Origin: Leptolyngbyaceae cyanobacterium
Lineage (GTDB): Bacteria; Cyanobacteriota; Cyanobacteriia; Phormidesmidales; Phormidesmidaceae
Direction: 5' to 3'
Length of the DNA: 24,000 nucleotides
Assembly: GCA_050043105.1 (NCBI GenBank)
Contig: JBHJIV010000157.1
Location: 1,470 to 25,469, forward strand
Of the stretch, positions 989 to 23,677 are shown piece by piece. Under the pieces are notes generated by a model. That model did no database searches and was not told the origin of the DNA. It saw only the letters and a program-made list of their open reading frames with translations. Position 1 is the stretch's first letter. Each line of letters begins with the position of its first letter. The translations under genes and the position numbers were made by a program.

Positions 989-2011
989 CTATGCCGCAGA
1001 GACGTTGTGCAGCGCGTCTAAAATTGACAACAGTTCTACAACAACACCGTTGGTCCAGCCAAACCCTATTTCGTTAGTGCTGTAGCCAAATTGAATCTCG
1101 TCTGAGACATTGCCTGAACAACGCTCTAGATCATATTTTTCTAACAGATAGCCGCAGCGCTCAAAGTCACTGAGGGCAAGGGTCACAAAATTCTCGGCAA
1201 TCCGTTTGGCTTCGGCCTGATAGCCGTAGCGCAGCAGCCTGCGGACTGCAATTAGCTGCAACGGTGCCCAGCCAAAGGGGGCGTCCCACTGATTGCCTGA
1301 AGTATAGTTACTGGTGCGAATACCGCCTGGGGCTTCAAACTTAGAGAGATTGTCGACCACTTGCTGAGCCTGTTCAACGGTGGCGATGTCGGCCCAGAGC
1401 AGATAAAAGGTAGTAGCAAATTCATAGTAGCGCCGCCGCTCGTCGCGAAAGTTGTAGTCAAGATAGAGCCCGCTATGGCTGTCCCAGAGATACTCATTGA
1501 TCAGCTTGGCCCGCTCGTCTGCTTTATCTTGCCAGCGCTGGGCTAAGTCGGGGTACTTAAGCGTTTCATTTATATAGACCAGGTCGCACTTCATAATATA
1601 CAGCAACACGTTTAGACACACAGGAGCATAGTGGATAATGTCAACACTAAATGGTCCAAAGCGGTTGGTTGGGTCTAGACCCGATTCACGCCTGGAGCGA
1701 TCGCATTTGTAAAATAGATCCGTTAACCGGTCGCCCATGCTGTCGTAATAAAGCGTTAGGTCATAGTCAATAACAGACTGGGTTCGATAGTAGTCTTTGA
1801 TCCGCTCAAAGTGGGTACGACCGCCCTCGTCACGCTCAGAAAAGATAACTTCGGGGGCGGGGCCATCACCAATGGCATAGTAGTGAGACAACCCTATGTT
1901 GGCATCTAGGTGGGGTGGGACATTCCAGTAATAGTAGTAGCTTTCGAGCTGGGGAATGGTGGAGCGTAGCCAGTCGATATCTTGACTGTGGGAAAACCAA
2001 CCCAACACCAT
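989..2011 (-). CDS. Trehalase-family (GH37) glycoside hydrolase, C-terminal ~2/3 only; probable truncated gene remnant
   Basis: 340-aa ORF. GNQWDAPFGWAPLQ and GFGWTNGV match the trehalase signature-2 and C-terminal motifs as remembered from E. coli TreA. The ORF starts where TreA is roughly 200 aa in, so the PGGRF..YYWD signature-1 region is absent. There is an in-frame TAG four codons upstream of the ATG (2021-2023), and only 117 nt separate it from the rfpC stop. Confidence 0.7.
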   Translation of the reverse strand: MVLGWFSHSQDIDWLRSTIPQLESYYYYWNVPPHLDANIGLSHYYAIGDGPAPEVIFSERDEGGRTHFERIKDYYRTQSVIDYDLTLYYDSMGDRLTDLFYKCDRSRRESGLDPTNRFGPFSVDIIHYAPVCLNVLLYIMKCDLVYINETLKYPDLAQRWQDKADERAKLINEYLWDSHSGLYLDYNFRDERRRYYEFATTFYLLWADIATVEQAQQVVDNLSKFEAPGGIRTSNYTSGNQWDAPFGWAPLQLIAVRRLLRYGYQAEAKRIAENFVTLALSDFERCGYLLEKYDLERCSGNVSDEIQFGYSTNEIGFGWTNGVVVELLSILDALHNVSAA

Positions 2012-2509: not shown

Positions 2510-5093
2510 CGGTGGAGGTCTCCTGTTGAAAAAATGGAGCGGAAGTGTCTTCTCTAGAAACTCTGGGTAATATGGGCAGGGTAAAGTAGAAGGTACTCCC
2601 GGCCCCAACAGCGCTCTGGGCCCAAATTTTCCCCTCGTGCTTTTGCACAATGCTGCGGCAGATGGCAAGTCCCAAACCCGTTCCCCCCTGGTGACCAACG
2701 TCGGACCCATCTAGTTGCTCAAAGCGATCAAAAATAACCTCGACTTTATCTTTGGGAATTCCCTGCCCGTAATCTTTAACGGCGATTAGCAACAGTGACT
2801 CAGCAATCGCTAAACCAGCCTGTATCGCATCTCTCCCGTTATTATCTAAGCTTTTTTCGATAAATGATACATTCTTGACATGAATCTGCTGAGCATTGAC
2901 CTCAACAACGGTGCCAGCAGGAGAGAACTTGATCGCATTACTCAGTAAGTTAGTCAGAGTTTGAATGATCCTATCCGGTGCGACCCATAGCTGAACTGAA
3001 AGCGGAGAAACAATCAGTTGAATATCGTGCTTCTCGGCCATAGCCCGCATTTCATCTGCAGCTTGAGACATAATACTAGACAGATTACAGGTTCTTTTAT
3101 TAAGGTCTACCTTGCCGAGCTTAATACGCTCAACATCTAAAATATCGTTGATTAATCGTACATGTCTGTTTGTTTTTGAAAACGCGATTTCGTCCATGCG
3201 CTGGCGTTTGGCATCTGAGATATCTATTGTTTCTTGGGCCAATAGCCCCAACGCTGCTCGGATGGAGGTTAACGGCGTTCGTAATTCATGACTGACAACG
3301 GCAATAAATTCATCTTTCATCGATTCAATCACTTGCCGTTCGGTAATATCCTTAAAGATAACAACTGCACCAACAATCGTATCATTCTCATAAATCGGGG
3401 TGCTGACGTATTCTGTAGGAAATTCAAATCTCCCCAGCCGTTGAAAGATGTCACCAGCGACATGACAGGTTTGACCCTGTTTTAAGGTCTTAAAGATAGG
3501 GTTCTGTTGCCAACTGTAGGGTATTTTTTCTGACGATGCATGATTTACCAGCCTGTGCATAAATTGACCGATGAGTTTCTCTTTTGCATAACACAATATT
3601 CTTGCAGCGGCGGTGTTGACAAACTCCTTTTTACCGTCAGGATCTAGAACATAAATACCCTCACCTGCAGAATTAAGAATCAGTTCATTTTGATGACTAA
3701 GACGCTTGAGTGAATCCCGAGCCTGCTGCAGTTCTCTCAGGGTACGCTCTCGTTCTTCAATTTCTTGTTTTAGGTCTTCATTGAGCTGCTGCAGTTCGAG
3801 GGTGCGCTGTAGTACCCGCGACTCCAAGTCAGCATTTAATAATTGAACTTCTCGATATAGCTGAGTTTGATAGATAATTGAGGCAAATCGGTCGGACAGC
3901 TCATGAAAAAGACCAACTTCATGGGCTGTCCAAGGATTGGCCTGATCCTGCTTTAGCTCTCGCCAAGTTTCAAAAGATTGACGTGGGCGCTGCTGACGTG
4001 GGTCAGAGGTGTCTAGTTTGCCTGCCCAAATAGTTTCATAATCAATAGACTGACGAAACAGGCTCAGATATCCGAGAATACGATTGTGATGGGTTAGCTT
4101 AGCAATCATTACACTTCGAATACCGCCACCGATTAGGGCAGACGTCAGTGTCCATGAAAGCTGAGTCTGTTTGATATCAGACATAACCCACAGTTGACCA
4201 ACTGACTGATTAGGGGATTCAGTCTCAAGCCAGCGTTGCCAGTCTGGGAGCTGCTCTAAGATTTGCTGGTGGCGTTTAGGTAAAACAATCTTGGTTAGCT
4301 CAGGTTGAAGACCATTAAGCACGAGCTGACCCTTGGATTCTGCATCGTTTTTTGTAATATAGAGTCTGCCACCTACACTTTGTAAGTCTCTAACTGTCTG
4401 GTCAAGAGCCTTTTGCAAAGAATCTTGGGGTGTAGAATGCAGACGTGAGACAACTTGATTGATAATTGCCTCATGTCGTCCTTGTAGGCGGGTCAGGCGC
4501 AGTAGATTAGCATGGCCAATCGCCACTGCAACTTGATCGGCAATTAGCTGAACCACCTCTAATTCTTTACGACTAAACCTGCGGGGGGCACTATTGTGGG
4601 CCACTAACAGCCCCCAAAGCTGATGGCGGTGAAAAATGGGTACAGCCAAAGACGCTTGTACTCCCATTGCCATTAAATAGTCAACATGACAGGGGTCAAC
4701 CGGACGAACCCACAGGTTAGTTTTTAGAGGCTCCTGAGTTGTTTTATTAATCAGTGGACTGATGCCGATTTCTCGTTTTTTAACGTTAACAATCGTGCGC
4801 TGTCGGGCCTTGATAAACATCTCACGAGCGTGCTCTGGAATATCACCTGCTGGAAACCGATGGCCTAGTAGTGAGGGCAACCGTTCGTTTCGAATGGCCT
4901 CTGCAATCACTTCGCCACTATTGTCGTCATCAAACCGATAAACTTTGACCCGATCGGTTCCTAAGAACCCTCTCATTTCGTTGACAGTAGCGCTTAAAAT
5001 TTCAGGTAGCTCAATCGACTGACGAATGCGGTCGGTCATTCGATGCAACAGTTCCTCAGGGGTTTTAATTGCTCGAATAGATTGGAGAGTCAT
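2499..5093 (-). CDS. rfpA: RfpA, knotless phytochrome-type sensor histidine kinase (GAF-GAF-coiled coil-PAS-HisKA-HATPase)
   Basis: The GAF domain starts almost at the N-terminus, with no N-terminal PAS. It has the canonical bilin-binding motif VRPVDPCHVDYL (Cys codon at complement of 4689-4691). Downstream are a second GAF-like region, a coiled coil (LESRVLQRTLELQQLNEDLKQEIEERERTLRELQQARD), a PAS domain, the H-box VSHELRTPLTSI and the G-boxes DYGQGIP / GGTGLGLAI. I place the start at ATG 5093. The ORF-track start at 5225 is a TTG directly abutting the rfpB stop. Confidence 0.85.
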   Translation of the reverse strand: MTLQSIRAIKTPEELLHRMTDRIRQSIELPEILSATVNEMRGFLGTDRVKVYRFDDDNSGEVIAEAIRNERLPSLLGHRFPAGDIPEHAREMFIKARQRTIVNVKKREIGISPLINKTTQEPLKTNLWVRPVDPCHVDYLMAMGVQASLAVPIFHRHQLWGLLVAHNSAPRRFSRKELEVVQLIADQVAVAIGHANLLRLTRLQGRHEAIINQVVSRLHSTPQDSLQKALDQTVRDLQSVGGRLYITKNDAESKGQLVLNGLQPELTKIVLPKRHQQILEQLPDWQRWLETESPNQSVGQLWVMSDIKQTQLSWTLTSALIGGGIRSVMIAKLTHHNRILGYLSLFRQSIDYETIWAGKLDTSDPRQQRPRQSFETWRELKQDQANPWTAHEVGLFHELSDRFASIIYQTQLYREVQLLNADLESRVLQRTLELQQLNEDLKQEIEERERTLRELQQARDSLKRLSHQNELILNSAGEGIYVLDPDGKKEFVNTAAARILCYAKEKLIGQFMHRLVNHASSEKIPYSWQQNPIFKTLKQGQTCHVAGDIFQRLGRFEFPTEYVSTPIYENDTIVGAVVIFKDITERQVIESMKDEFIAVVSHELRTPLTSIRAALGLLAQETIDISDAKRQRMDEIAFSKTNRHVRLINDILDVERIKLGKVDLNKRTCNLSSIMSQAADEMRAMAEKHDIQLIVSPLSVQLWVAPDRIIQTLTNLLSNAIKFSPAGTVVEVNAQQIHVKNVSFIEKSLDNNGRDAIQAGLAIAESLLLIAVKDYGQGIPKDKVEVIFDRFEQLDGSDVGHQGGTGLGLAICRSIVQKHEGKIWAQSAVGAGSTFYFTLPILPRVSREDTSAPFFQQETSTDDD

Positions 5094-9236: not shown

Positions 9237-11468
9237 TCACGGAAATCGGCTCGCTGTCGACGCAATTAAAAATGCGCCATAGGTAGCAATGTAGCCAACG
9301 GTAAAATGGGTCAGCCCCACTAGCCGGGCCTGTACGATTGATAGGGCAACCGGTTTATCTTTGGGATATCCAAAGGATAACGGTGTATGTTCATGGGCCC
9401 ACAAGAGTGTTTCAATCAGTTCTTGCCAATAGCCCCGCCAGGTAATTAGGAACATAAAGCTCACAGCCCAAGCCAGGTGGCCAAAGAGAAACATCCAGGC
9501 CCAAACGGCCAGATTATTGGTGCCATAGACGTTATATCCATTGATCAGCTGGGATGAATTGAGCCATAGATAGTCACGGAACCAGCCCATCAGATATGTG
9601 GAGCTTTCGTTAAACTGGGCAACATTACCACTCCAAATGGCTAAATGTTTCCAATGCCAGTAAAAGGTGATCCACCCCAGGGTATTGCGCATCCAATACA
9701 TGGCTAAATAGAATGTATCCCAGGCGGAAATATCACAGGTGCCGCCACGGCCTGGCCCATCGCAGGGAAAGCTGTAGCCAAAATCTTTTTTATCTGGCAT
9801 TAGCTTAGAACCACGGGCATCCAATGCGCCTTTGACTAAAATCAAGGTGGTGACATGGAGACCAAGTGCGATCGCATGGTGAACCAAGAAATCGCCAGGA
9901 CCAATGGTGAGAAATAGCGAATTAGTACCGCTGTTAATGGCGTCTAGCCACCCTGGCAACCAGACATCGCCATGGTTAGGCCAGGCGGTGGTGGCAATAC
10001 TATCCGAGTTCGATAGCAGGCTATTGATACCGTATAGGGTTTTGCCGTGAAACGCCTGAATCCACTGGGCAAAAACAGGTTCCACCAGAATCTGTTTTTC
10101 AGGTGCACCAAACGCCACCTCACAGTCGTTGAGCACATAGAGACCCAGGGTATGGAAGCCTAAAAACAGAGAGACCCAGCTCAAGTGAGAGATAATGGCC
10201 TCTTTATGGTTTAGCACCCGAGACAGCACATTATCTTCGTTCGCCTGTGGATCATAGTCACGGATTAAGAAAATAGCACCGTGGGCAAAGGCCCCCACCA
10301 TCAAGAACCCAGCAATATACTGGTGGTGAGTATACAACGCCGACATGGTGGTGTAATCACGCGCCAAAAAGGCATAAGGGGGCATGGAGTACATGTGCTG
10401 AGCGACCAATGAGCACACCACCCCTAAACACGCCAGGTGCCACCCGAGTTGAAAGTGAAGAGAATTGTTGTAGTCATCATAGATGCCCTTATGGCCACGA
10501 CCGGTACGCGGTGCAATAAAGAAACCACTCCATCCAGGCCCTTGGAGAGACTCGGTCATTTCTTTAATGCTGTGACCAATACCAAAGTTGGTGCGATACA
10601 TGTGACCAGCAATGATAAAGATAACGGCAATGGCAAGATGATGATGGGCCATGTCCGTTAGCCACAGAGACTCGGTTTGAGGATGAAAGCCTCCCAAAAA
10701 GGTGAGAATGGCCGTGCCTGCTCCCTGAGCGCTGTTAAATAGGTGGTCTGCGGTATCAGGATTTTGAGCATAAACACCCCAGTTGCCTGTAAAGAATGGC
10801 GTTAGTCCGGCGGGGTGGGGCGGCGATGCCAGCAGGTTGTCCCAGCCGACGTGCCGACCGCGTGATTCAGGGATGGCTACATGAATTAAATGCCCGGCCC
10901 ACGCCAGGGAGCTGACGCCAAACAAACCTGCCAAATGGTGGTTCAGGCGCGATTCAGCATTCTTAAACCAGGCCAGACTTGGACGAAACCGAGGCTGCAG
11001 GTGTAAAAACCCTGCATAGAGCATCACCGCTGCTAGCACCAACAAAAATATTGACCCCACAAACAGGTCGCTGTTGGTGCGCATGCCAATGGTGTACCAC
11101 CAGTGATAAACGCCGGAGTAGCAAATATCGACGGGGTTGTTGGCCCCGGCCTGGGTATAAGCCTCAATCGCAGCTGGTCCAAACTGGGCATCCCAAATAG
11201 CGTGGGCAATGGGTGACGTATTTAAAGGATCTTGAATCCATCTTTCAAAATTGCCCTGCCAGGCCACATGAAACAAAATGCCTGATATCCATAAAAAGAT
11301 AATGGCGAGATGCCCAAAATGGGAGGCGAAAATCCTTTGATAAAGACTTTCCTCCGTCATCCCGTCATGGCTTTCAAAGTCATGGGCCGTGGCGATGGAA
11401 TAAAAGAGTCGACGCGTGGTCGGGTCTCTCTGTAGATCCTGACTAAATTTTGGAAATTTTGTCGCCAT
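9237..11468 (-). CDS. psaB2: Photosystem I P700 apoprotein A2 (PsaB), far-red paralog
   Basis: 743 aa: [23 protein letters not shown]...[18 protein letters not shown] (FX cluster Cys pair). Collinear with PsaB throughout. Confidence 0.95.
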
Positions 11469-11531: not shown

Positions 11532-13877
11532 CTACCCGACAGCAGCCATGCGAGCTAGGAAAAAGGCCCAGGTGGTGACAATCCCCCCTAGAAGATAGTG
11601 GGCAACGCCCACGGCTCTTCCCTGGGTAATGCTTAGGGCCCGAGGTTGAATAGCGGTGGTAATTTTGAGTTTGTTATGGGCCCACACGATAGACTCGATT
11701 AGCTCTTGCCAATAGCCTCGACCACTAAACAAAAACATTAGACTAAAGCCAAAGATAATATGCCCAGCTAAGAACATCACCCCGTAGGCAGACAGCGATG
11801 ACCCATAGGAGTTAATCACCTGAGAAGCCTGTGCCCACAGGAAATCTCGTAGCCAACCGTTGTTGGTAATCGATGATAAAGCAAAGTTACCCCCGGTGAT
11901 GTGGGAAATCGTGCCGTCGGCGTCTATCGTGCCCCAAACATCTGACTGCATTTTCCAAAAGAAGTGGAAAATAACAATCGAAAGAGAGTTATACATCCAA
12001 AATAACCCTAAGAAGACATGATCCCAGGCAGATACCTGACAGGTGCCGCCTCGCCCAGGTCCATCGCAGGGGAAACGGAAGCCTAAATCAGCCTTATCGG
12101 GAACTAAACGAGAGCTACGGGCAAACAACACCCCCTTGAGCAGCACCAGCACAGTTACGTGGATGGTAAAGGCATGAATGTGGTGAATCAGAAAATCAGC
12201 CGTCCCTAACGGTATGGGCATCATGGCAATCTTGCCACCCACGGCGATAATATCTCCTCCAAAGGCATGGCTCACTGGCTCGGTAAGGTTAGGAACTGTG
12301 TTCCCTATTCCCGATAGTTGAATGTTGCGCAAACCCCCAAATACATTTCCTAACGGTTCAGCCACCTGGGAGTTACCCACAGCCATGGTGTGAATATGTT
12401 GAACCCACTGGGCAAAGATTGGCTGCAGCTGAATGCCTGTGTCTGAGAACATATCTTGGGGGCGACCAAAGGCTCGCATGGTGTCGTTGTGACAATACAT
12501 GGCAAAGCTGTGGAACCCTAAAAACTGGCAGACCCAAGCCAGGTGAGAAATAATCACATCTCGGTGACGCAGCACCCGGTCAAGAACATTGTTGACGTTT
12601 TGAGCTGGGTCGTAGTCTCGCACCATATAGATAGCGGCGTGGGCCGCTGCACCCACAATTAGAAAGCCACCAATCCACACATGGTGGGTAAACAGCGATG
12701 TTACGGTGGCATAGTCCGTGGCTAGAAACGGATAGGGCGGCATGGCATACATGTGGTGGGCCACAATAATGCTCAAGGACCCTAGCATGGCCAAATTCAG
12801 CGAGAGCTGTGCATGCCAGGATGTGGTCAATACCTCAAATAGTCCCCTGTGCCCCACAGGCCCAATAAAGCTGAGAAATGACAACATTTTGGGAGTGCCA
12901 GCATCCTCTAGCATGACCTTAATGTCGTGGCCAATGCCCCAGTTGGTGCGGTACATGTGTCCGGCAATGATAAACAGAACTGCGATCGCAATATGGTGAT
13001 GGGCAATATCTGTCATCCATAGCCCCCCTGTGGCTGGGTTTAACCCCCCCCGAAAGGTCAGAAAATCAGCATAAGCGGACCAGTTTAGGGTAAAAAAGGG
13101 CTTAATGCCTTGGGCAAAGCTGGGATACAGCTCTGCCATCAGACTTTTATTGAGAATAAACTCATGGGGAAGCGGAATATCTTGTAATGAGACACCTGCA
13201 TCCAACAGCTTGTTTGTTGGCAGAGCAACATGAATTAAATGTCCCGCCCAGCCTAAGCTACCTAAACCCAGCAGCCCAGCTAAATGATGGTTGAGCATCG
13301 ACTGCACATTCAGAAACCACTCTAGCTTGGGGGCTCGTACATGATAGTGAAACCAGCCTGCAAACAGCATTAGCACTGCCATCACTAGTGCTCCCATGGC
13401 GGTCCAGTAGAGCTGAAACTCGTGGGTAAAGCCCTCACCGCGCCACATCTGAAACAGTCCAGACGTAATTTGAATGCCGCGAAAACCACCGCCGACATCA
13501 GCATTGAGAATATCTTGACCAACAATCGGCCAAACTACCTGAGCGCTGGGTTTTATATTGGTTGGATCACTCATCCAGGCAGAAAAATTGGAAAAGCGAG
13601 CACCGTGAAAATACATGCCACTCAGCCAAACAAAGATGACGGCCAGATGACCAAAATGGGCCGAGAAGATTCTACGGGAGATATCTTCTAAATCAGTCGT
13701 ATGACTATCAAAATCATGGGCATCCGCATGGAGATCCCAAATCCAGGTAGTAGACTTGGGTCCGCGTGTCAGAGACCGCTTGAAATGCCCCGGCTTGGAC
13801 CATGGCTCAAACGATGTAGGCACCGGATTATTATCAACAGCAACCTGCTGCTTCTGATCCGGAGGACTTGTGGTCAT
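11532..13877 (-). CDS. psaA2: Photosystem I P700 apoprotein A1 (PsaA), far-red paralog
   Basis: 781 aa: ...[16 protein letters not shown]...[29 protein letters not shown].... AAGGAG lies 8 nt upstream of the ATG. Collinear with PsaA apart from a longer lumenal loop (see findings). Confidence 0.95.
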
Positions 13878-13935: not shown

Positions 13936-15102
13936 CACTCCGGTTGATGTGTCTGCAGCGTTAATAAACTCAGCGTCTTCTCCAAGAAAGATAGGAAATG
14001 TTGTTTTACGGGTATCTTTGACCGCATAAATACCCAAGTTTGCCTGTACGACAACATCAGACCATGTCGGCACAACTGTCTTTTGAAAAGACTGTCCTAG
14101 CGGCAACCGATCAAACCCCAAAGCTGCCATATCTACGCCTATAGCCGCTGACCAAATGCCTGCTACCGGTAAAGCGGCAAGTAAAAAATGGACAGCGCGA
14201 GATGTCTCAAACGTTGCCCCTCGCCATAGTAGTTTCTGTTGATAGGCCTGAGTATGCTCAAAGCTATAGGTGCGATTGCTCTTTTTTGGCCGTTCTGCTA
14301 AAACAGAATGCTGCTCCGAGTGACGCACCAGCGCAGACGTGACCAAAGCCCCATGCAATGAGCAGAGTAACGCCCCACCAAACACGCCGATTACCCCCAG
14401 CTGGTGAAAGGGGTTAGCAAGAATATTATGGTCAGCCTGAAATTCCAGCATAAAGGTAAATGTTCCGGAAATTCCGAGAGGCATACCCGAAGCAAAACCG
14501 CCTTGACCGATAGGGTAGATCAACAACACTGAGACCGCTGCCGCAACTGGGGCTGTAAACGCTAGCGAAATCCAGGGACGCATGCCCAAACGATAGCTCA
14601 GTTCCCATTCTCGATCTTGATAGCTAATGCTACCAATGATAACGTGCAGCACAATTAGCTGATATGGACCCCCGTTAACCAGCCATTCGTCTAAAGAGGC
14701 CGCCTCCCAAATTGGATAAAAATGAAGTCCAATTGCTGCTGATGTCGGCACAACGGCGGCCGTAATCACATTATTACCGTCCAATAGAGCACCGGAAATA
14801 ACTCTCCCTGTACCCTCTATATCAACAGCAGGGGCGGCTATAAACGCCAGTATGAAGACAATGGCGGCCGTAGACAGAGTGGGAAACATAATCATCCCAA
14901 ACCAGCCCACATAGATTCGATTTTCGGTACTGGTCACCCACCGGCAGAAACGCTCCCAGGGAGAAATTGGCGCAGCCGCATCCACGCAAATAGCACGTCT
15001 CGATGGAGGGTCTACATTGGAGTGACCACTACCAGATAGGGTAGGCGACTCCAACTGTTTTAGAGATGATTTAGTAGTAATCACTTTGCTAAGCTGTGTC
15101 AT
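13927..15102 (-). CDS. chlF: Chlorophyll f synthase ChlF (PsbA4, super-rogue D1)
   Basis: 391-aa D1 homolog: [15 protein letters not shown]...[13 protein letters not shown]...[13 protein letters not shown]. It has YQDREWE where D1 has YMGREWE (QD motif; codons at complement of 14614-14619). FASGMPLG replaces FSDGMPLG (D170 lost). There is no HE...H...D.A C-terminal Mn-ligand set, and an N-terminal extension of about 35 aa is present. Confidence 0.9.
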
Positions 15103-15746: not shown

Positions 15747-16271
15747 ATGCATTTCCATCTCAAAAAAATCTCAATCAAGCCTATCATCTCTACGATTTTT
15801 ACACTGTTGCTCTCGTCCATTTTATGGATAACTGTTGGGGATGACGTGGCCGGAGCGGTTGAAATTAATCAGGCTACTCGTACCGTACCGCTAAATGATG
15901 CAGGCGATCAAGTCACAGTAAGTGTTAAGCAGTTTACTACGGGGCAGCGAAAGTTTAATAGCAACTGTGCCCAGTGCCACTTAGATGGAGGTACCAAAAC
16001 CAATCCTGATGTCGATCTGGGTGCCGAACGGTTGTTACTGGCAACGCCCTCACGCAATAATATTAAGAGCATGATCGAGTATCTAGAAAATCCCACGACC
16101 TATGATGGATTAACGTCCCTAGAAGAGCTACATCCCTCACTCGCTCGTTCTGATCTCTTTCCTAAAATGCGAGAGCTAACGGAGGAGGATTTAATTGCGA
16201 TTTCAAGCTACATACTAATCCAGCCAAAAATTGTCGGTGAGCAGTGGGCTGGTGGTAAACCAAACCGGTAG
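15747..16271 (+). CDS. psbV: Cytochrome c550 (PsbV) paralog, PSII lumenal extrinsic subunit
   Basis: 174 aa with a signal peptide, then TVPLNDAGDQVTVSVKQFTTGQRKFNSNCAQCHLDGGTKTNP...ATPSRNNI..MIEYLENPTTYDG...ELHPSLARSDLFPKMRELTEEDL. It is collinear with canonical PsbV, including the CxxCH heme motif and the distal His in HPSL. AGGAGA lies 9 nt upstream of the ATG. Confidence 0.85.
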   Translation: MHFHLKKISIKPIISTIFTLLLSSILWITVGDDVAGAVEINQATRTVPLNDAGDQVTVSVKQFTTGQRKFNSNCAQCHLDGGTKTNPDVDLGAERLLLATPSRNNIKSMIEYLENPTTYDGLTSLEELHPSLARSDLFPKMRELTEEDLIAISSYILIQPKIVGEQWAGGKPNR

Positions 16272-16322
16272 CTGTAGACAAGCAAAAAGCCAGATTAGAC
16301 TGGCTTTTTGCTTGTCTACAGC
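16271..16322. terminator. Bidirectional intrinsic terminator shared by convergent psbV (+) and psbO-psbF-nblA (-)
   Basis: Perfect 23-bp inverted repeat: gctgtagacaagcaaaaagccag (16271-16293), loop attaga (16294-16299), ctggctttttgcttgtctacagc (16300-16322). The core GCCAG/CTGGC stem is flanked by an A5 tract on one side and a T5 tract on the other, so it reads as a terminator on both strands. It begins at the last base of the psbV stop codon and ends 9 nt from the nblA stop. Confidence 0.8.
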
Positions 16323-16331
16323 TTGAGAGAT

Positions 16332-16499
16332 TTAAGGATTTCTGATTAAATGCTTAACCAAATTCTCTCTCATCATCATTAGCTGCATGATGTCTATGAT
16401 ATATTCTTGAGCTTGAATAACTGTCAGCCCCTTGACCTGCTCTCTTAAAATTTGTATCTCAAACTGTTGCTCTAAGGTCAAATCTCCTGGCATTCCCAT
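16332..16499 (-). CDS. nblA: NblA-family phycobilisome degradation (proteolysis adaptor) protein
   Basis: 55 aa from the ATG (complement of 16497-16499), with GGAGGAG 8 nt upstream: MGMPGDLTLEQQFEIQILREQVKGLTVIQAQEYIIDIMQLMMMRENLVKHLIRNP. It aligns along its whole length with remembered NblA/Ycf18 sequences (LS.EQQF.........QV..........F.......M..EN......R). The 93-aa ORF-track version extends into psbF in another frame and is rejected. Confidence 0.8.
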   Translation of the reverse strand: MGMPGDLTLEQQFEIQILREQVKGLTVIQAQEYIIDIMQLMMMRENLVKHLIRNP

Positions 16500-16531
16500 A
16501 ATAATTGCTCCTCCATCGATTAAATGTGGCC

Positions 16532-16666
16532 TTAGCGCTGAACAAACTGCATCGCTGCGATCGCACCTAAGAAAAATACTGTCGGAATCCCCAGAGCATG
16601 TACTGCCAGCCATCTGATAGTAAAAATAGGATACCGAATCTCCTGGTCACGGTTGATATTAGCCAT
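16532..16666 (-). CDS. psbF: Cytochrome b559 beta subunit (PsbF) paralog; small ORF not in the ORF track
   Basis: Manual base-by-base reverse-complement translation gives [44 protein letters not shown] followed by a stop (44 aa). It is near-identical in pattern to canonical PsbF (..[31 protein letters not shown]), including the heme-ligand His. AAGAGG lies about 9 nt upstream. It starts 22 nt after the psbO stop. Confidence 0.85.
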
Positions 16667-16688
16667 CGGAAAAACCTCTTATTTACAA

Positions 16689-17513
16689 TTAAGCAACTGC
16701 TTGGTCGATCCGACCATAGAACTGACCTTGAATTCTGACATCCATCGGCTCTTTAGCACCAAAATCAGTATCAGAAGGTTGATTGCTTTCAAATAACCCA
16801 GCAATTTCTCCTGTTTTTCGATTGACTCGAGTGATTTGTAGAGAAATCTCCCCTTCACCCACCTCAAAGGACTTGCTGTTTTGACGGGAAAATTTCTCCC
16901 GATCTGCCTGAATTGGGAATCCTACTGCTGCATCATATCCTGATGATAATCCCCGTCCTTTTGGATCAATAAAATTGGATGTGCGATAGGGAGGTACCTG
17001 GAATGTTCCCACTAGTCGGGTTGTTGGGCTTAGCTTATTTGAGACATCTTGATTTTTAGCCACAAGTCCTTTAATCGTAAATAGCAGAGCAATCCGCTCA
17101 CCATTGGGAGGCTGTACCGTTACGGGCTGAAAGTCAAATCCCCCCTGCTCAGCAAAAGTGATGTTGCCATCAGAATCGACTTGTAAAGAACCACTTACTT
17201 GATCAAGACTAAAACTCTCGCGGGTGAGGGGTTTTGAAACTACGAAATCATTCTCCTGACTCTTGACCATAGAAGAGCCTTTTACTAGAAATGTCTCAGG
17301 TTGTAAACACAACCCATTAAGTTGATACGACTGATTAGCATCTATAGCAATTGCATCCCGACTGCTGCGTGACAGTTGAGGACAGTTATTGGCTAGACCA
17401 CTACCCTTGATGTCATCGTAGCTTAGTGAGCTAGCCTGTGGGCCGCCACTGCAGGCGGTAATTAGTCCAAAGCACAAGACTAATAAACCAGTTATTAACG
17501 TACGATATTTCAT
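16689..17513 (-). CDS. psbO: Manganese-stabilising protein PsbO paralog, PSII lumenal extrinsic subunit
   Basis: 274 aa from the ATG (complement of 17511-17513; an alternative ATG is at 17528): MKYRTLITGLLVLCFGLITACSGG...LSYDDIKGSGLANNCPQL...GLCLQPETFLVK...FQPVTVQPPNGERIALLFTIKGLVA...VPPYRTSNFIDPKGRG.SSGYD...TGEIAGLFESNQPSDTDFGAKEP.DVRIQGQFYGRI. It is collinear with cyanobacterial PsbO, including both disulfide cysteines. Confidence 0.9.
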   Translation of the reverse strand: MKYRTLITGLLVLCFGLITACSGGPQASSLSYDDIKGSGLANNCPQLSRSSRDAIAIDANQSYQLNGLCLQPETFLVKGSSMVKSQENDFVVSKPLTRESFSLDQVSGSLQVDSDGNITFAEQGGFDFQPVTVQPPNGERIALLFTIKGLVAKNQDVSNKLSPTTRLVGTFQVPPYRTSNFIDPKGRGLSSGYDAAVGFPIQADREKFSRQNSKSFEVGEGEISLQITRVNRKTGEIAGLFESNQPSDTDFGAKEPMDVRIQGQFYGRIDQAVA

Positions 17514-17659
17514 TTTTTGTTCTCTCATTAATGGCGTAGGCGCGTAACCAGACGAAAGCGCACTCGCAAATTTGTGAAAAGATGATAGTCCACACGATAA
17601 ATTCCCCCACAAAAAAATGGAGAACATATGAAGAGAGAGTTTATGTATCGCTGATTATT

Positions 17660-17879: not shown

Positions 17880-18356
17880 ATGAGCCTGGTTACAGAACTC
17901 ATTCTGGGTGCAGATAGTGAAGCTCGCTATTTAGCTCCAAAGGAACTGCGGATTTTTCAAGACTTTGCCAAAACTGGAGAACAGCGTATTCGGATCGCCA
18001 GAGCGCTGGCAGAAAATGAACAGCGTATTGTGCAAAACGGTAGTCAGAAATTTTGGGAACGTTGTCCAAATACGCCAAGCAATAGCGGAAACGATCGTAA
18101 AACAGCCTCTTGTCAACGAGATCAAGGCTGGTATGTTCGTTTAATTGCTTATTCTATTTTGGCCGGGAGCGAACGCCCGTTAGAAGAGATTGGTACAGTC
18201 GGTATCAAAGCAATGTACAACAATCTAGAAATTCCGATTCGCAATATTGCAGAATGCATGCGCTGTCTTAAAGAAGAGGCAATGGCTCTTCTAAGTGAAG
18301 AAGATGCTCAAGAAGTAGCTCCATACTTTGATTTGATCATTCATTCACTTTTGTAA
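17880..18356 (+). CDS. Allophycocyanin alpha-type subunit, far-red paralog (ApcA2/ApcD2/ApcD5 class; exact paralog not assignable by eye)
   Basis: 158 aa: MSLVTELILGADSEARYLAPKELRIFQDF..TGEQRIRIA...KTASCQRDQGWYVRLIAYSILAG...VAPYFDLII. This is the AP alpha globin fold with the chromophore Cys at residue 78. It has the divergent PNTPSNSGN segment where canonical ApcA has ...SPGGNAYG.... Confidence 0.9.
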   Translation: MSLVTELILGADSEARYLAPKELRIFQDFAKTGEQRIRIARALAENEQRIVQNGSQKFWERCPNTPSNSGNDRKTASCQRDQGWYVRLIAYSILAGSERPLEEIGTVGIKAMYNNLEIPIRNIAECMRCLKEEAMALLSEEDAQEVAPYFDLIIHSLL

Positions 18357-18985: not shown

Positions 18986-19465
18986 ATGAGTATCATCACT
19001 CAGGCGATCGCCAATGCTGATCGTGAGACCCGCTATCTCAGCCAGGGAGAATTAGATAGTATTCGCCTCTTTTTTCAAGATGGGCAACAGCGTCTGCGGA
19101 TTGCCTATATTTTGACTCAGAATGTGCAAACAATTGTAGAGAAAGGTAGTCAACGATTTTGGCAGCGTCATCCTATAACACCCAGTAATAGCGGCAATCC
19201 CACATTTCGGAGTTCCTGTCTGCGAGATCAAAGCTGGTTTATTCGTCTGATTTCCTATGCGGTTGTAGTGGGTGATATCGACCCCATTCAACTCAGCGGA
19301 GTGAGAGGGGTCAAAGAGATGTACCTGTCTCTAGAAGTCCCTCTTCGAAACGTCGCCGAATGTATGCGCTGCCTTAAAGAAGAAACCTTGGAACTATTGA
19401 GTTTAGAGGATGCGGCAGAGGTTGCCCCCTACTTTGACTATCTGATTCAAGGATTAATGCCCTAA
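18986..19465 (+). CDS. Allophycocyanin alpha-type subunit, far-red paralog (second copy)
   Basis: 159 aa from ATG 18986: MSIITQAIANADRETRYLSQGELDSIRLFF...ITPSNSGNPTFRSSCLRDQSWFIRLISYAVVVGD...VAPYFDYLIQGLMP. Closely related to the 17880 gene (shared RN.AECMRCLKEE....LLS.EDA.EVAPYFD). The chromophore Cys is present. Confidence 0.9.
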   Translation: MSIITQAIANADRETRYLSQGELDSIRLFFQDGQQRLRIAYILTQNVQTIVEKGSQRFWQRHPITPSNSGNPTFRSSCLRDQSWFIRLISYAVVVGDIDPIQLSGVRGVKEMYLSLEVPLRNVAECMRCLKEETLELLSLEDAAEVAPYFDYLIQGLMP

Positions 19466-21942: not shown

Positions 21943-22035
21943 GGCAGCTTAACCCTTTGAACTATCACATTTATGTTGGTTGGTTTGGGGGTGTGTGTAT
22001 CTATCCCAAACATCAATATTCCAAACTCCAAAACC

Positions 22036-22569
22036 ATGAGTATCGTTAAACAGGTCATTCTCAATGCCGATGAAGAACTTCGCTATCCTACTCCTGGTGA
22101 GCTACGGATGATTCGCACTTTCTACAAAACAGGACCAGAGCGCATTCGGCTAGCTTAAACGTAAGAAGAAAAAGCTCAGGCGATCGTAGATAGAGGCACT
22201 CGAAAATTTTGGCAGCTTTGTCCGAGGACACCGAGCAACAGTGGTGATCGCCGCAAAACCGAAGCAGCTAAGCGAGATGTCGGTTGGTATATCCGTTTAA
22301 TTAGCTACTGTTTGTTAGCTGGCAACAATCGTCCATTAAGAGAGATTGGCTTAGTTGGAATGAAAGAGCTATATACCAATATTGGTATTCCGCTCACTAA
22401 CATTTTGCAGTATATCCGGTGTCTCAAAGCGGAGGCTATTGCTTTGCTAGATGAGACCGATGCAGCCGCTGTCATTCCCTACTTTGATGAAATCATTCAG
22501 GAATTGGCTCTGCCAGGGCCACCCTATTTTATGAACGATGGTATCGGTGAGAGTGAATCAGTCGTTTAA
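22036..22569 (+). pseudogene. Allophycocyanin alpha-type far-red paralog (Cys-less, ApcD3-like) interrupted by two in-frame TAA codons
   Basis: A single frame from ATG 22036 reads MSIVKQVILNADEELRYPTPGELRMIRTFYKTGPERIRLA*T*EEKAQAIVDRGTRKFWQLCPRTPSNSGDRRKTEAAKRDVGWYIRLISYCLLAGNN...VIPYFDEIIQELALPGPPYFMNDGIGESESVV. The stops are at 22156-22158 and 22162-22164. There is no frameshift, and the reading is collinear with the two intact alpha paralogs. The ORF track splits it into 21973-22158 and 22312-22569. Confidence 0.75.
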
Positions 22570-22618
22570 TCGTTTTTGAAAACCCACATTCAACAGCAGT
22601 CTGATCAAGGAGACTATT

Positions 22619-23677
22619 ATGACAATTTCAATGGGTGCGTTAAAACCAGCTAGAAGCTGGATAGGGGGACTTGACGACTGGTTAAAACGAGACAGCTATG
22701 TGTTTGTTGGCTGGTCAGGATTACTCTTGTTTCCCTGTGCGTACTTGGCTATAGGGGCCTGGTTTACCGGCACCTCATTTGTTACATCTTGGTATACTCA
22801 TGGTCTTGTCAGCTCTTATTTAGAAGGCTGTAATGTTCTCACCACTGCTGTGTCTACCCCGGCTGAAAGCATGGGGCATTCACTTTTGTTTCTATGGGGA
22901 CCAGAGGCCGGTGGGGATTTTACCCGCTGGTGTCAGATTGGTGGGCTGTGGAATTTTACTGCTCTTCACGGTGCACTCGGGCTGATGGGCTTTATGCTGA
23001 GGCAGATTGAGCTTGCCCGGTTAGTGGGTATTCGTCCCTACAACGCTATTGCTTTTTCGGCTCCAATTGCAGTTTTTGTGGCAACGTTTTTAATCTATCC
23101 CCTGGGTCAGTCCAGCTGGTTTTTTGGGCCTAGTTTTGGAGTGGCCGCCATCTTTCGATTTCTTCTATTTTTCCAGGGATTTCATAACTACACCCTAAAT
23201 CCCTTTCACATGATGGGTGTAGCAGGGGTATTAGGCGCTGCATTGCTCTGTGCCATCCATGGAGCAACCGTACAAAATACCCTTTTCAAGGACTCGGAAG
23301 GTAAAAACACATTTAGAGGGTTCTCGACAACTCAAGCGGAGGAAACCTACTCTATGGTGACGGCTAATCGCTTTTGGTCTCAGATCTTTGGTATTGCATT
23401 TTCCAATAAGCGCTGGCTTCACTTCTTTATGCTGTTTGTGCCAGTAACGGGCTTGTGGATGAGTGCAATTGGCATGATTGGTCTGGCCTTTAATTTGCGG
23501 GCTTATGACTTTGTGAGTCAGGAAATCCGGGCAGCGGAAGACCCTGAATATGAGACGTTTTACACCAAAAATGTCTTGCTCAATGAAGGGGTACGGGCCT
23601 GGGCATCAGAGCTTGATCAACCAGCGAAAAAGTTTGTCTTTCCAGAGGAGGTGTTACCTCGTGGCTTTGCTGAATAA
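22619..23677 (+). CDS. psbD3: Photosystem II D2 protein (PsbD), far-red paralog
   Basis: 352 aa: [44 protein letters not shown]...[25 protein letters not shown]...[23 protein letters not shown]...FPEEVLPRG. Full-length and collinear with D2. AAGGAGA lies upstream. Confidence 0.95.

Follow-up and report, generated by a model that had tools for sequence, protein, structure and literature searches.

The window, the whole 24,000-nucleotide stretch of DNA that was analysed, is a far-red-light photoacclimation (FaRLiP) cluster. It carries rfpC/A/B, psaJ2/F2/L2/B2/A2, chlF and paralogs of psbV, nblA, psbF and psbO, and then apcD5, apcB2, apcD2, apcE2, an interrupted apcD3, psbD3 and the start of psbC2. 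The sequence was compared with two moderately distant relatives, a metagenome-assembled genome (L001, 93% nucleotide identity) and a Tara scaffold (L059, 91% nucleotide identity), and with contigs of the same species, among them L078, L079 and L089.

The extra paralogs lie between chlF and apcD5, at 15747-17513. They comprise a psbV-like gene for cytochrome c550 (15747-16271, plus strand), nblA (about 16332-16499, minus strand), a psbF-like gene for a cytochrome b559 beta subunit of 44 aa (16532-16666, minus strand) and a psbO-like gene for a manganese-stabilising protein (16689-17513, minus strand). These four genes also occur in L059, L078 and L079.

The apcD3 gene (22036-22569, plus strand) encodes an allophycocyanin alpha-type subunit of the FaRLiP cluster. 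Translation starts at the ATG at 22036 and the gene has its own TAA stop at 22567-22569. Two further TAA codons interrupt it in this contig, at codon 41 (22156-22158) and codon 43 (22162-22164). The initial annotation, made from the sequence alone, had reported these two in-frame stops, and the deposited sequence does contain them. It had also described a single frame kept over 177 codons and collinear with two intact alpha-type paralogs, which agrees with our reading. The frame is open except for the two stops, and the paralogs read RIARALAEN (gene at 17880-18356) and RIAYILTQN (gene at 18986-19465) at the stop site, as was stated.

The interrupted gene is an ApcD3 ortholog. It lies between apcE2 and psbD3, an arrangement that is the same in L059, L078 and L079, and the ORF map and Pfam assignments place rfpABC, chlF and psaA2/B2 in the same cluster. 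Both halves of the gene match the PF00502 profile collinearly, at profile positions 1-35 and 40-155, and this profile is present in all apcD3 homologs. More than 100 intact ApcD3 homologs are found, with identities of up to 94-95%. The closest solved structure is the ApcD3 of Synechococcus sp. PCC 7335 (8UHE chain C, listed as 8uhe_C 'ApcD3'; E = 5.5e-87, 294 bits), followed by that of Chroococcidiopsis thermalis PCC 7203 (9I1R chain C, E = 4.2e-76). Both ApcD3 chains are matched over their full length. ApcD5 (3e-55), ApcD2 (2.7e-40) and ApcA (~1e-30) are weaker matches. The window gene resembles both ApcD3 structures in its position within the FaRLiP cluster, in an Ala that replaces the bilin Cys and in a PGP(P/S)YF C-terminal extension. 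Both structures contain K-T/V-L at residues 41-43. The window gene has TAA at 41 and 43 instead, unlike its conspecific alleles.

The chromophore Cys position, residue 78 (22267-22269), is Ala, as initially annotated. Of 75 orthologous loci, 50 have Ala and 25 have Cys at this residue. The C-terminal tail, previously estimated at ~16 aa, is 18-19 residues long, includes the segment PGPPYFMNDG and is kept in orthologs. The window gene combines the Cys78/81 to Ala replacement with this extension, which is the majority form of ApcD3. A Cys-less ApcD3 with a tail is already a known kind. The presence of Ala instead of Cys in ApcD3 has been described (PMC4390838), and the Cys is retained in only 27% of ApcD3 sequences (PMC12152189). 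In two cryo-EM structures (PMC10810746, PMC12152189), ApcD3 holds phycocyanobilin non-covalently and takes the place of ApcD in the far-red core. The proposal that the intact protein would bind its bilin non-covalently is supported by the phycocyanobilin bound in this way in the published ApcD3 structures (PMC10810746).

The two stops had been assigned to helix Y, but they fall in helix A. An AlphaFold2 model of a close ApcD3 ortholog, with a pLDDT of 84.5, places helix X at residues 3-13, helix Y at 20-31 and helix A/B at 33-61, and codons 41 and 43 both fall within the last of these. The recommended alignment with ApcD3 orthologs reveals sense codons at both positions and no internal stop in any of the 75 loci. 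At position 43 these loci have L (72 loci) or I (three loci); position 41 varies among K, T, Q, R, N and G.

Each stop is one substitution away from a sense codon, as had been noted, and the actual codons are AAA and TTA. L059 reads GCT AAA ACG TTA GAA, from which the window differs by exactly two single-base changes. At 22156 (plus strand) the window contains T in place of the A found in L078, L079, L089, L059 and L001, which converts codon 41 from AAA (Lys) to TAA. At 22163 (plus strand) it contains A in place of the T found in the same five sequences, which converts codon 43 from TTA (Leu) to TAA.

The claim that the gene is otherwise undamaged, with an intact RBS region and an intact psbD3, holds in part. 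There is no further decay in apcD3, the upstream region is conserved and psbD3 is open over 352 codons. However, psbD3 carries two adjacent changes private to this contig, and no canonical Shine-Dalgarno sequence precedes the apcD3 ATG, although the upstream region is nonetheless conserved in relatives. Among orthologous loci, a stretch at 21976-22010 (TTGGTTGGTTTGGGGGTGTGTGTATCTATCCC), which precedes the apcD3 start by ~30-60 nt, shows roughly the conservation of the coding sequence. In L008 and L010 the stretch is followed by a 7-nt insertion, which indicates that it is not translated, and its role may be that of a promoter or a 5'-UTR element. The 198-aa calls of some gene callers arise from running the apcD3 ORF through this stretch.

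Apart from its two stops, apcD3 evolves under constraint. When the stops are excluded, dN/dS relative to L001 is 0.046 (32 synonymous and 6 non-synonymous changes), a value without the relaxed selection of a pseudogene. The window's own branch contains 10 synonymous and 3 conservative missense changes. No relaxed selection is seen in apcE2 or psbD3 either. The natural divergence between the window and L059 consists of 71% transitions, and A<->T transversions, the class to which both stop-making changes belong, are rare (46 of 953 substitutions). Independent accumulation of two nonsense mutations was considered and rejected. The probability of two such hits this close together is 0.0005 for each later substitution and does not exceed 0.007 (0.7%) overall, even when all 13 remaining changes of the branch are taken to be later ones. 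A nearby double nonsense is so improbable that the pattern needs a special explanation.

Exact protein look-ups of the window's ApcD5 and RfpC identified ten conspecific contigs. Five are from ENA, namely ERZ1740070 NODE_409, ERZ23487348 scaffolds 366 and 5142, ERZ4903328 NODE_438 and a contig of ERZ1740067 (847 bp, 2.2x). The other five are Logan contigs, two from SRR3401489 and three from SRR22824269. All but the 2.2x contig, representing five assembly/run accessions, are 99.76-100% (about 99.8%) identical to the window. The alignments of the ten contigs are free of gaps and jointly cover the entire window. The longer contigs have a coverage of 4.8-6.5x, which indicates that the organism is rare in the sampled communities.

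Four of these contigs encode an uninterrupted ApcD3 (P0124). They are ERZ1740070 NODE_409, ERZ23487348 scaffold_366, Logan SRR22824269_367464 and one further contig of 20-50 kb, which was counted but not displayed and is probably ERZ4903328 NODE_438. The uninterrupted protein is identical to the window translation at 175/175 other residues. Codons 41-43 are AAA ACG TTA in the three conspecific contigs read at this site. With four intact alleles, the lesion is not reproduced in independent sequence of the same population. Over 2,970 nt, L089 (Logan SRR22824269) differs from the window at six positions only (20911, 21715, 22156, 22163, 22694 and 22698), and all six differences are private to the window.

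Other searches returned no conspecific sequence. Exact look-ups of the truncated apcD3 fragments and of the window PsbD3 gave no match, in the case of PsbD3 because the window protein carries private changes. A metagenome scan with a degenerate pattern covering the ancestral and derived states gave 0 matches, and a protein-based scan of the same collection found nothing nearer than 89%. The collection evidently contains no conspecific contigs. In the ERZ23487348 scaffold (L079), ~100 nt at the psbD3 start cannot be aligned (L079 14709-14718, window 22588-22687), and the psbD3 call there has 325 aa, 27 fewer than in the window. This discrepancy is a local deletion or mis-assembly in the L079 contig.

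The two stop-making bases belong to a larger set of contig-private differences. At 34 sites across 24 kb, 2-4 witnesses share one base and the window alone has another. Transversions account for 32 of the 34 and transitions for 2 (binomial P = 2e-15 versus the natural spectrum). The changes include 16 A:T>T:A, 8 G:C>T:A and 7 A:T>C:G. Twenty-four are non-synonymous, two of them nonsense, while six are synonymous and four intergenic. Random transversions in the same genes are expected to be 82% non-synonymous and 4.5% nonsense. The private coding effects match unselected noise. In these genes, earlier divergence shows strong purifying selection, with a dN/dS of roughly 0.05-0.1. The private sites are also strongly clustered, with 17 of the 33 neighbour gaps at or below 32 nt, a figure reached by none of 20,000 random placements. 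They fall in ~10 small clusters along the contig, none of which exceeds the length of a sequencing read. Of the private sites, 16 can be aligned in L059 and 10 in L001, and all of these show the conspecific consensus base. The set thus displays the marks of error: it is private to one assembly, its spectrum is unnatural and it has no codon-position bias.

The largest group lies in the phytochrome-kinase gene rfpA (3163..3649, minus strand), where 13 private differences within 490 nt, 12 of them transversions, result in 9 amino-acid changes. Four independent contigs, L082-L085, agree with one another and differ from the window at these sites. Twelve of the 13 are located in two clusters of less than 100 nt each (3163-3225 and 3551-3649), and the site at 3436 is isolated. 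A pair in psaB2 (9688..9697, minus strand) results in L594R and F591Y, and a pair in chlF (14630..14643, minus strand), A>C twice, in I158S and F154V. The pair in apcD2 (19383..19393, plus strand) consists of two T>A changes causing V133E and D136E, and L078, L079, L080, L059 and L001 all carry T. In psbD3, a C>A and a T>A change (22694..22698, plus strand) turn the conserved D2 motif KRDRFVF into KRDSYVF (R26S/F27Y). KRDRFVF is kept in the conspecific contigs, in L059 and in a Nodosilinea PsbD3. Four transversions, A>C three times and C>A once, form a cluster in the intergenic region between the psbO-like gene and apcD5 (17605..17626). The C>A change at 17626 creates an ATG upstream of the psbO-like gene, for which the ORF list then gives 312 aa versus 274 aa in the conspecific calls.

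Similar noise occurs in the conspecific 2.2x contig (L086), which contains 17 transversions in 68 nt. Clustered non-synonymous transversions at 11756/11759 are common to L078 and L082, which indicates that some such polymorphism in the population is real. At these two sites and at 10132, the window groups with L079 against L078 and L082; at 9897/9900 it groups with L078 against L079 and L082. The polymorphisms that look real are each shared by two contigs, which indicates that the contigs are mosaics of at least two co-occurring haplotypes.

From these sequence comparisons, we infer a technical cause: the two TAA codons of apcD3 are very probably base-call or assembly errors in one contig. The stops occur in this contig alone, the independent assemblies that are nearly identical to it have an intact gene, and the accompanying changes have an error-like spectrum without a selection filter. 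The initial annotation had offered a very recent inactivation, an artefact or something stranger. The intact conspecific contigs and the contig-wide private transversions favour the artefact. The statement of a disabled gene holds for the deposited sequence but is probably wrong for the organism, in view of the intact alleles in near-identical contigs and the contig-wide error pattern. In the organism, apcD3 would be an ordinary functional gene, whose subunit would bind phycocyanobilin non-covalently at the ApcD position of a far-red bicylindrical core. The contig is probably a low-coverage metagenome assembly, in which the A at 22156 would have been miscalled as T and the T at 22163 as A. The stop pair would be one of the ~10 clusters of wrong bases and would happen to strike AAA and TTA, each one A/T swap from TAA. 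A/T swaps make stops at 9.7% of the possible apcD3 positions, which makes a stop-making pair not implausible where errors are clustered. Given clustered errors, the double-nonsense pair is a few-percent event, and the finding was chosen for being eye-catching.

The private differences resemble the errors of low-coverage short-read metagenome assemblies. They are confined to one assembly, form read-scale clusters, are dominated by transversions and are blind to codon position. They are also absent from every other assembly of the population, and the 2.2x contig is similarly noisy. Unlike commonly cited Illumina error profiles, in which A<->T swaps are less frequent, the present set is rich in such swaps. 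A point against error is that other substitutions are better known as Illumina errors than A<->T transversions. In addition, the intact alleles of the witnesses, which may stem from other samples or strains, speak only for a 99.8%-identical population.

A real and very recent double nonsense, by which apcD3 would be a nascent pseudogene in a private hypermutator or in a culture-adapted or mutagenised clone with clustered unselected transversions, is unlikely. The broader version, in which all 34 private changes are real and a natural or culture hypermutator lineage with an unusual clustered spectrum has just had its apcD3 knocked out, is judged slightly less probable still. The stop bases are present in the deposited sequence, and one substitution is enough to turn each conspecific sense codon into the stop. 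The lack of other decay (10 synonymous and 3 missense changes on the branch, dN/dS = 0.046) fits an extremely recent event. Multi-nucleotide mutation events are enriched in transversions, which also agrees with a real lesion. The FaRLiP cluster would be neutral under white-light culture, and the few clustered transversion polymorphisms common to two other contigs are probably real. As in a nascent bacterial pseudogene, an otherwise intact, collinear ORF contains in-frame stops and the orthologs are all intact. Unlike in a nascent pseudogene, there is no relaxed selection, the stops are unshared with relatives, and they are part of a contig-wide, error-like set. By extrapolation, an unfiltered divergence of 0.14% over a ~6-Mb genome would amount to thousands of changes and hundreds of knocked-out genes. 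The mixture of 16 A:T>T:A, 8 G:C>T:A and 7 A:T>C:G fits no single known mutator. The read-scale clustering and the like signature in the 2.2x contig point to a technical cause, and the other four assemblies of the population are intact. If the mutation were real, ApcD3 would not be made, and, by analogy with Synechococcus 7335 mutants, the far-red core of that lineage would fail to assemble. In Synechococcus 7335 the whole core is abolished once any of its far-red allophycocyanin subunits is lost (PMC10810746), which would make a real loss costly in far-red light.

It is extremely improbable that the stops are real but bypassed by an ochre-suppressor tRNA, by read-through or by a hop from GCU (codon 40) to GCU (codon 47) as in phage T4 gene 60. 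The likeness is one of resemblance: the first stop directly follows a GCU, with a matching GCU 21 nt downstream, and the stops lie within a 4-bp inverted repeat, CTTA-AACG-TAAG. Against bypass, TAA ends 9 of the 20 window genes, in the same TAA-A and TAA-G contexts, and no tRNA gene is present within the window. The local RNA fold is not significant (z = -0.72), and the first stop has no slippery sequence. A hop would, according to the model, remove 7 residues of helix A. The conspecific contigs are simply sense-coded at this site and conserve no recoding device, and we find neither a conserved recoding signal nor a stop-codon reassignment. A deliberate edit, that is, a designed marker-less knock-out through two point changes to TAA near the 5' end, can practically be dismissed. 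The two changes are indeed the minimal edits for placing tandem stops early in the gene. However, 32 further private changes of the same type occur in other genes and in intergenic DNA, which no design would add, a marker or scar is absent, and the source appears to be a metagenome-type contig of 25,471 bp.

Three local mechanisms were also examined. A single multi-nucleotide mutation or compensatory flip from CTAA-AACG-TTAG to CTTA-AACG-TAAG gave way to the contig-wide pattern. With the two codons fixed, the complementarity of the inverted repeat is expected by chance in 1 of 2 cases. An ectopic donor for short-patch gene conversion was rejected, as the window contains no second copy of the mutated 15-mer with up to 3 mismatches. 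The motif CTAA N4 TTAG, a candidate for a motif-linked error, has a single occurrence. A literature search on nonsense-disrupted FaRLiP genes found nothing specific.

If the stops were real, the locus would be a natural apcD3 knock-out within an otherwise complete FaRLiP cluster. It would provide a natural test of the assembly of, and energy delivery in, a far-red core that lacks the terminal-emitter-like subunit ApcD3. It would also bear on the question of whether ApcD3 or ApcE2 is the functional far-red terminal emitter. One study argues for ApcE2 (PMC12152189), and in Synechococcus 7335 the loss of any single subunit abolishes the core (PMC10810746).

With base-call or assembly error as the preferred reading, the locus carries a lesson about data quality. 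The contig would contain ~1 wrong base per 700 nt, in clusters, and its RfpA, PsaB2, PsaA2, ChlF, ApcD2, ApcE2 and PsbD3 proteins would carry spurious substitutions as well. As they stand, the proteins of this contig would be unfit for residue-level comparison of far-red paralogs, and an annotation pipeline would miscall apcD3 as a pseudogene.

Two minor observations concern the region around rfpC. A trehalase-like ORF that abuts rfpC (989-2011, minus strand, 340 aa) covers only ~60% of the TreA/TreF models, at their C-terminal end. It was considered as a second damaged gene and rejected, since the conspecific contigs contain the same 338-aa gene, which indicates that this length is natural and that the gene is undamaged. 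The stop codon of rfpA (TAG) and the start codon of rfpC (ATG) lie in an 11-nt overlap at 2499-2509 on the minus strand (ATGACGACTAG), an arrangement that suggests translational coupling of the two genes.
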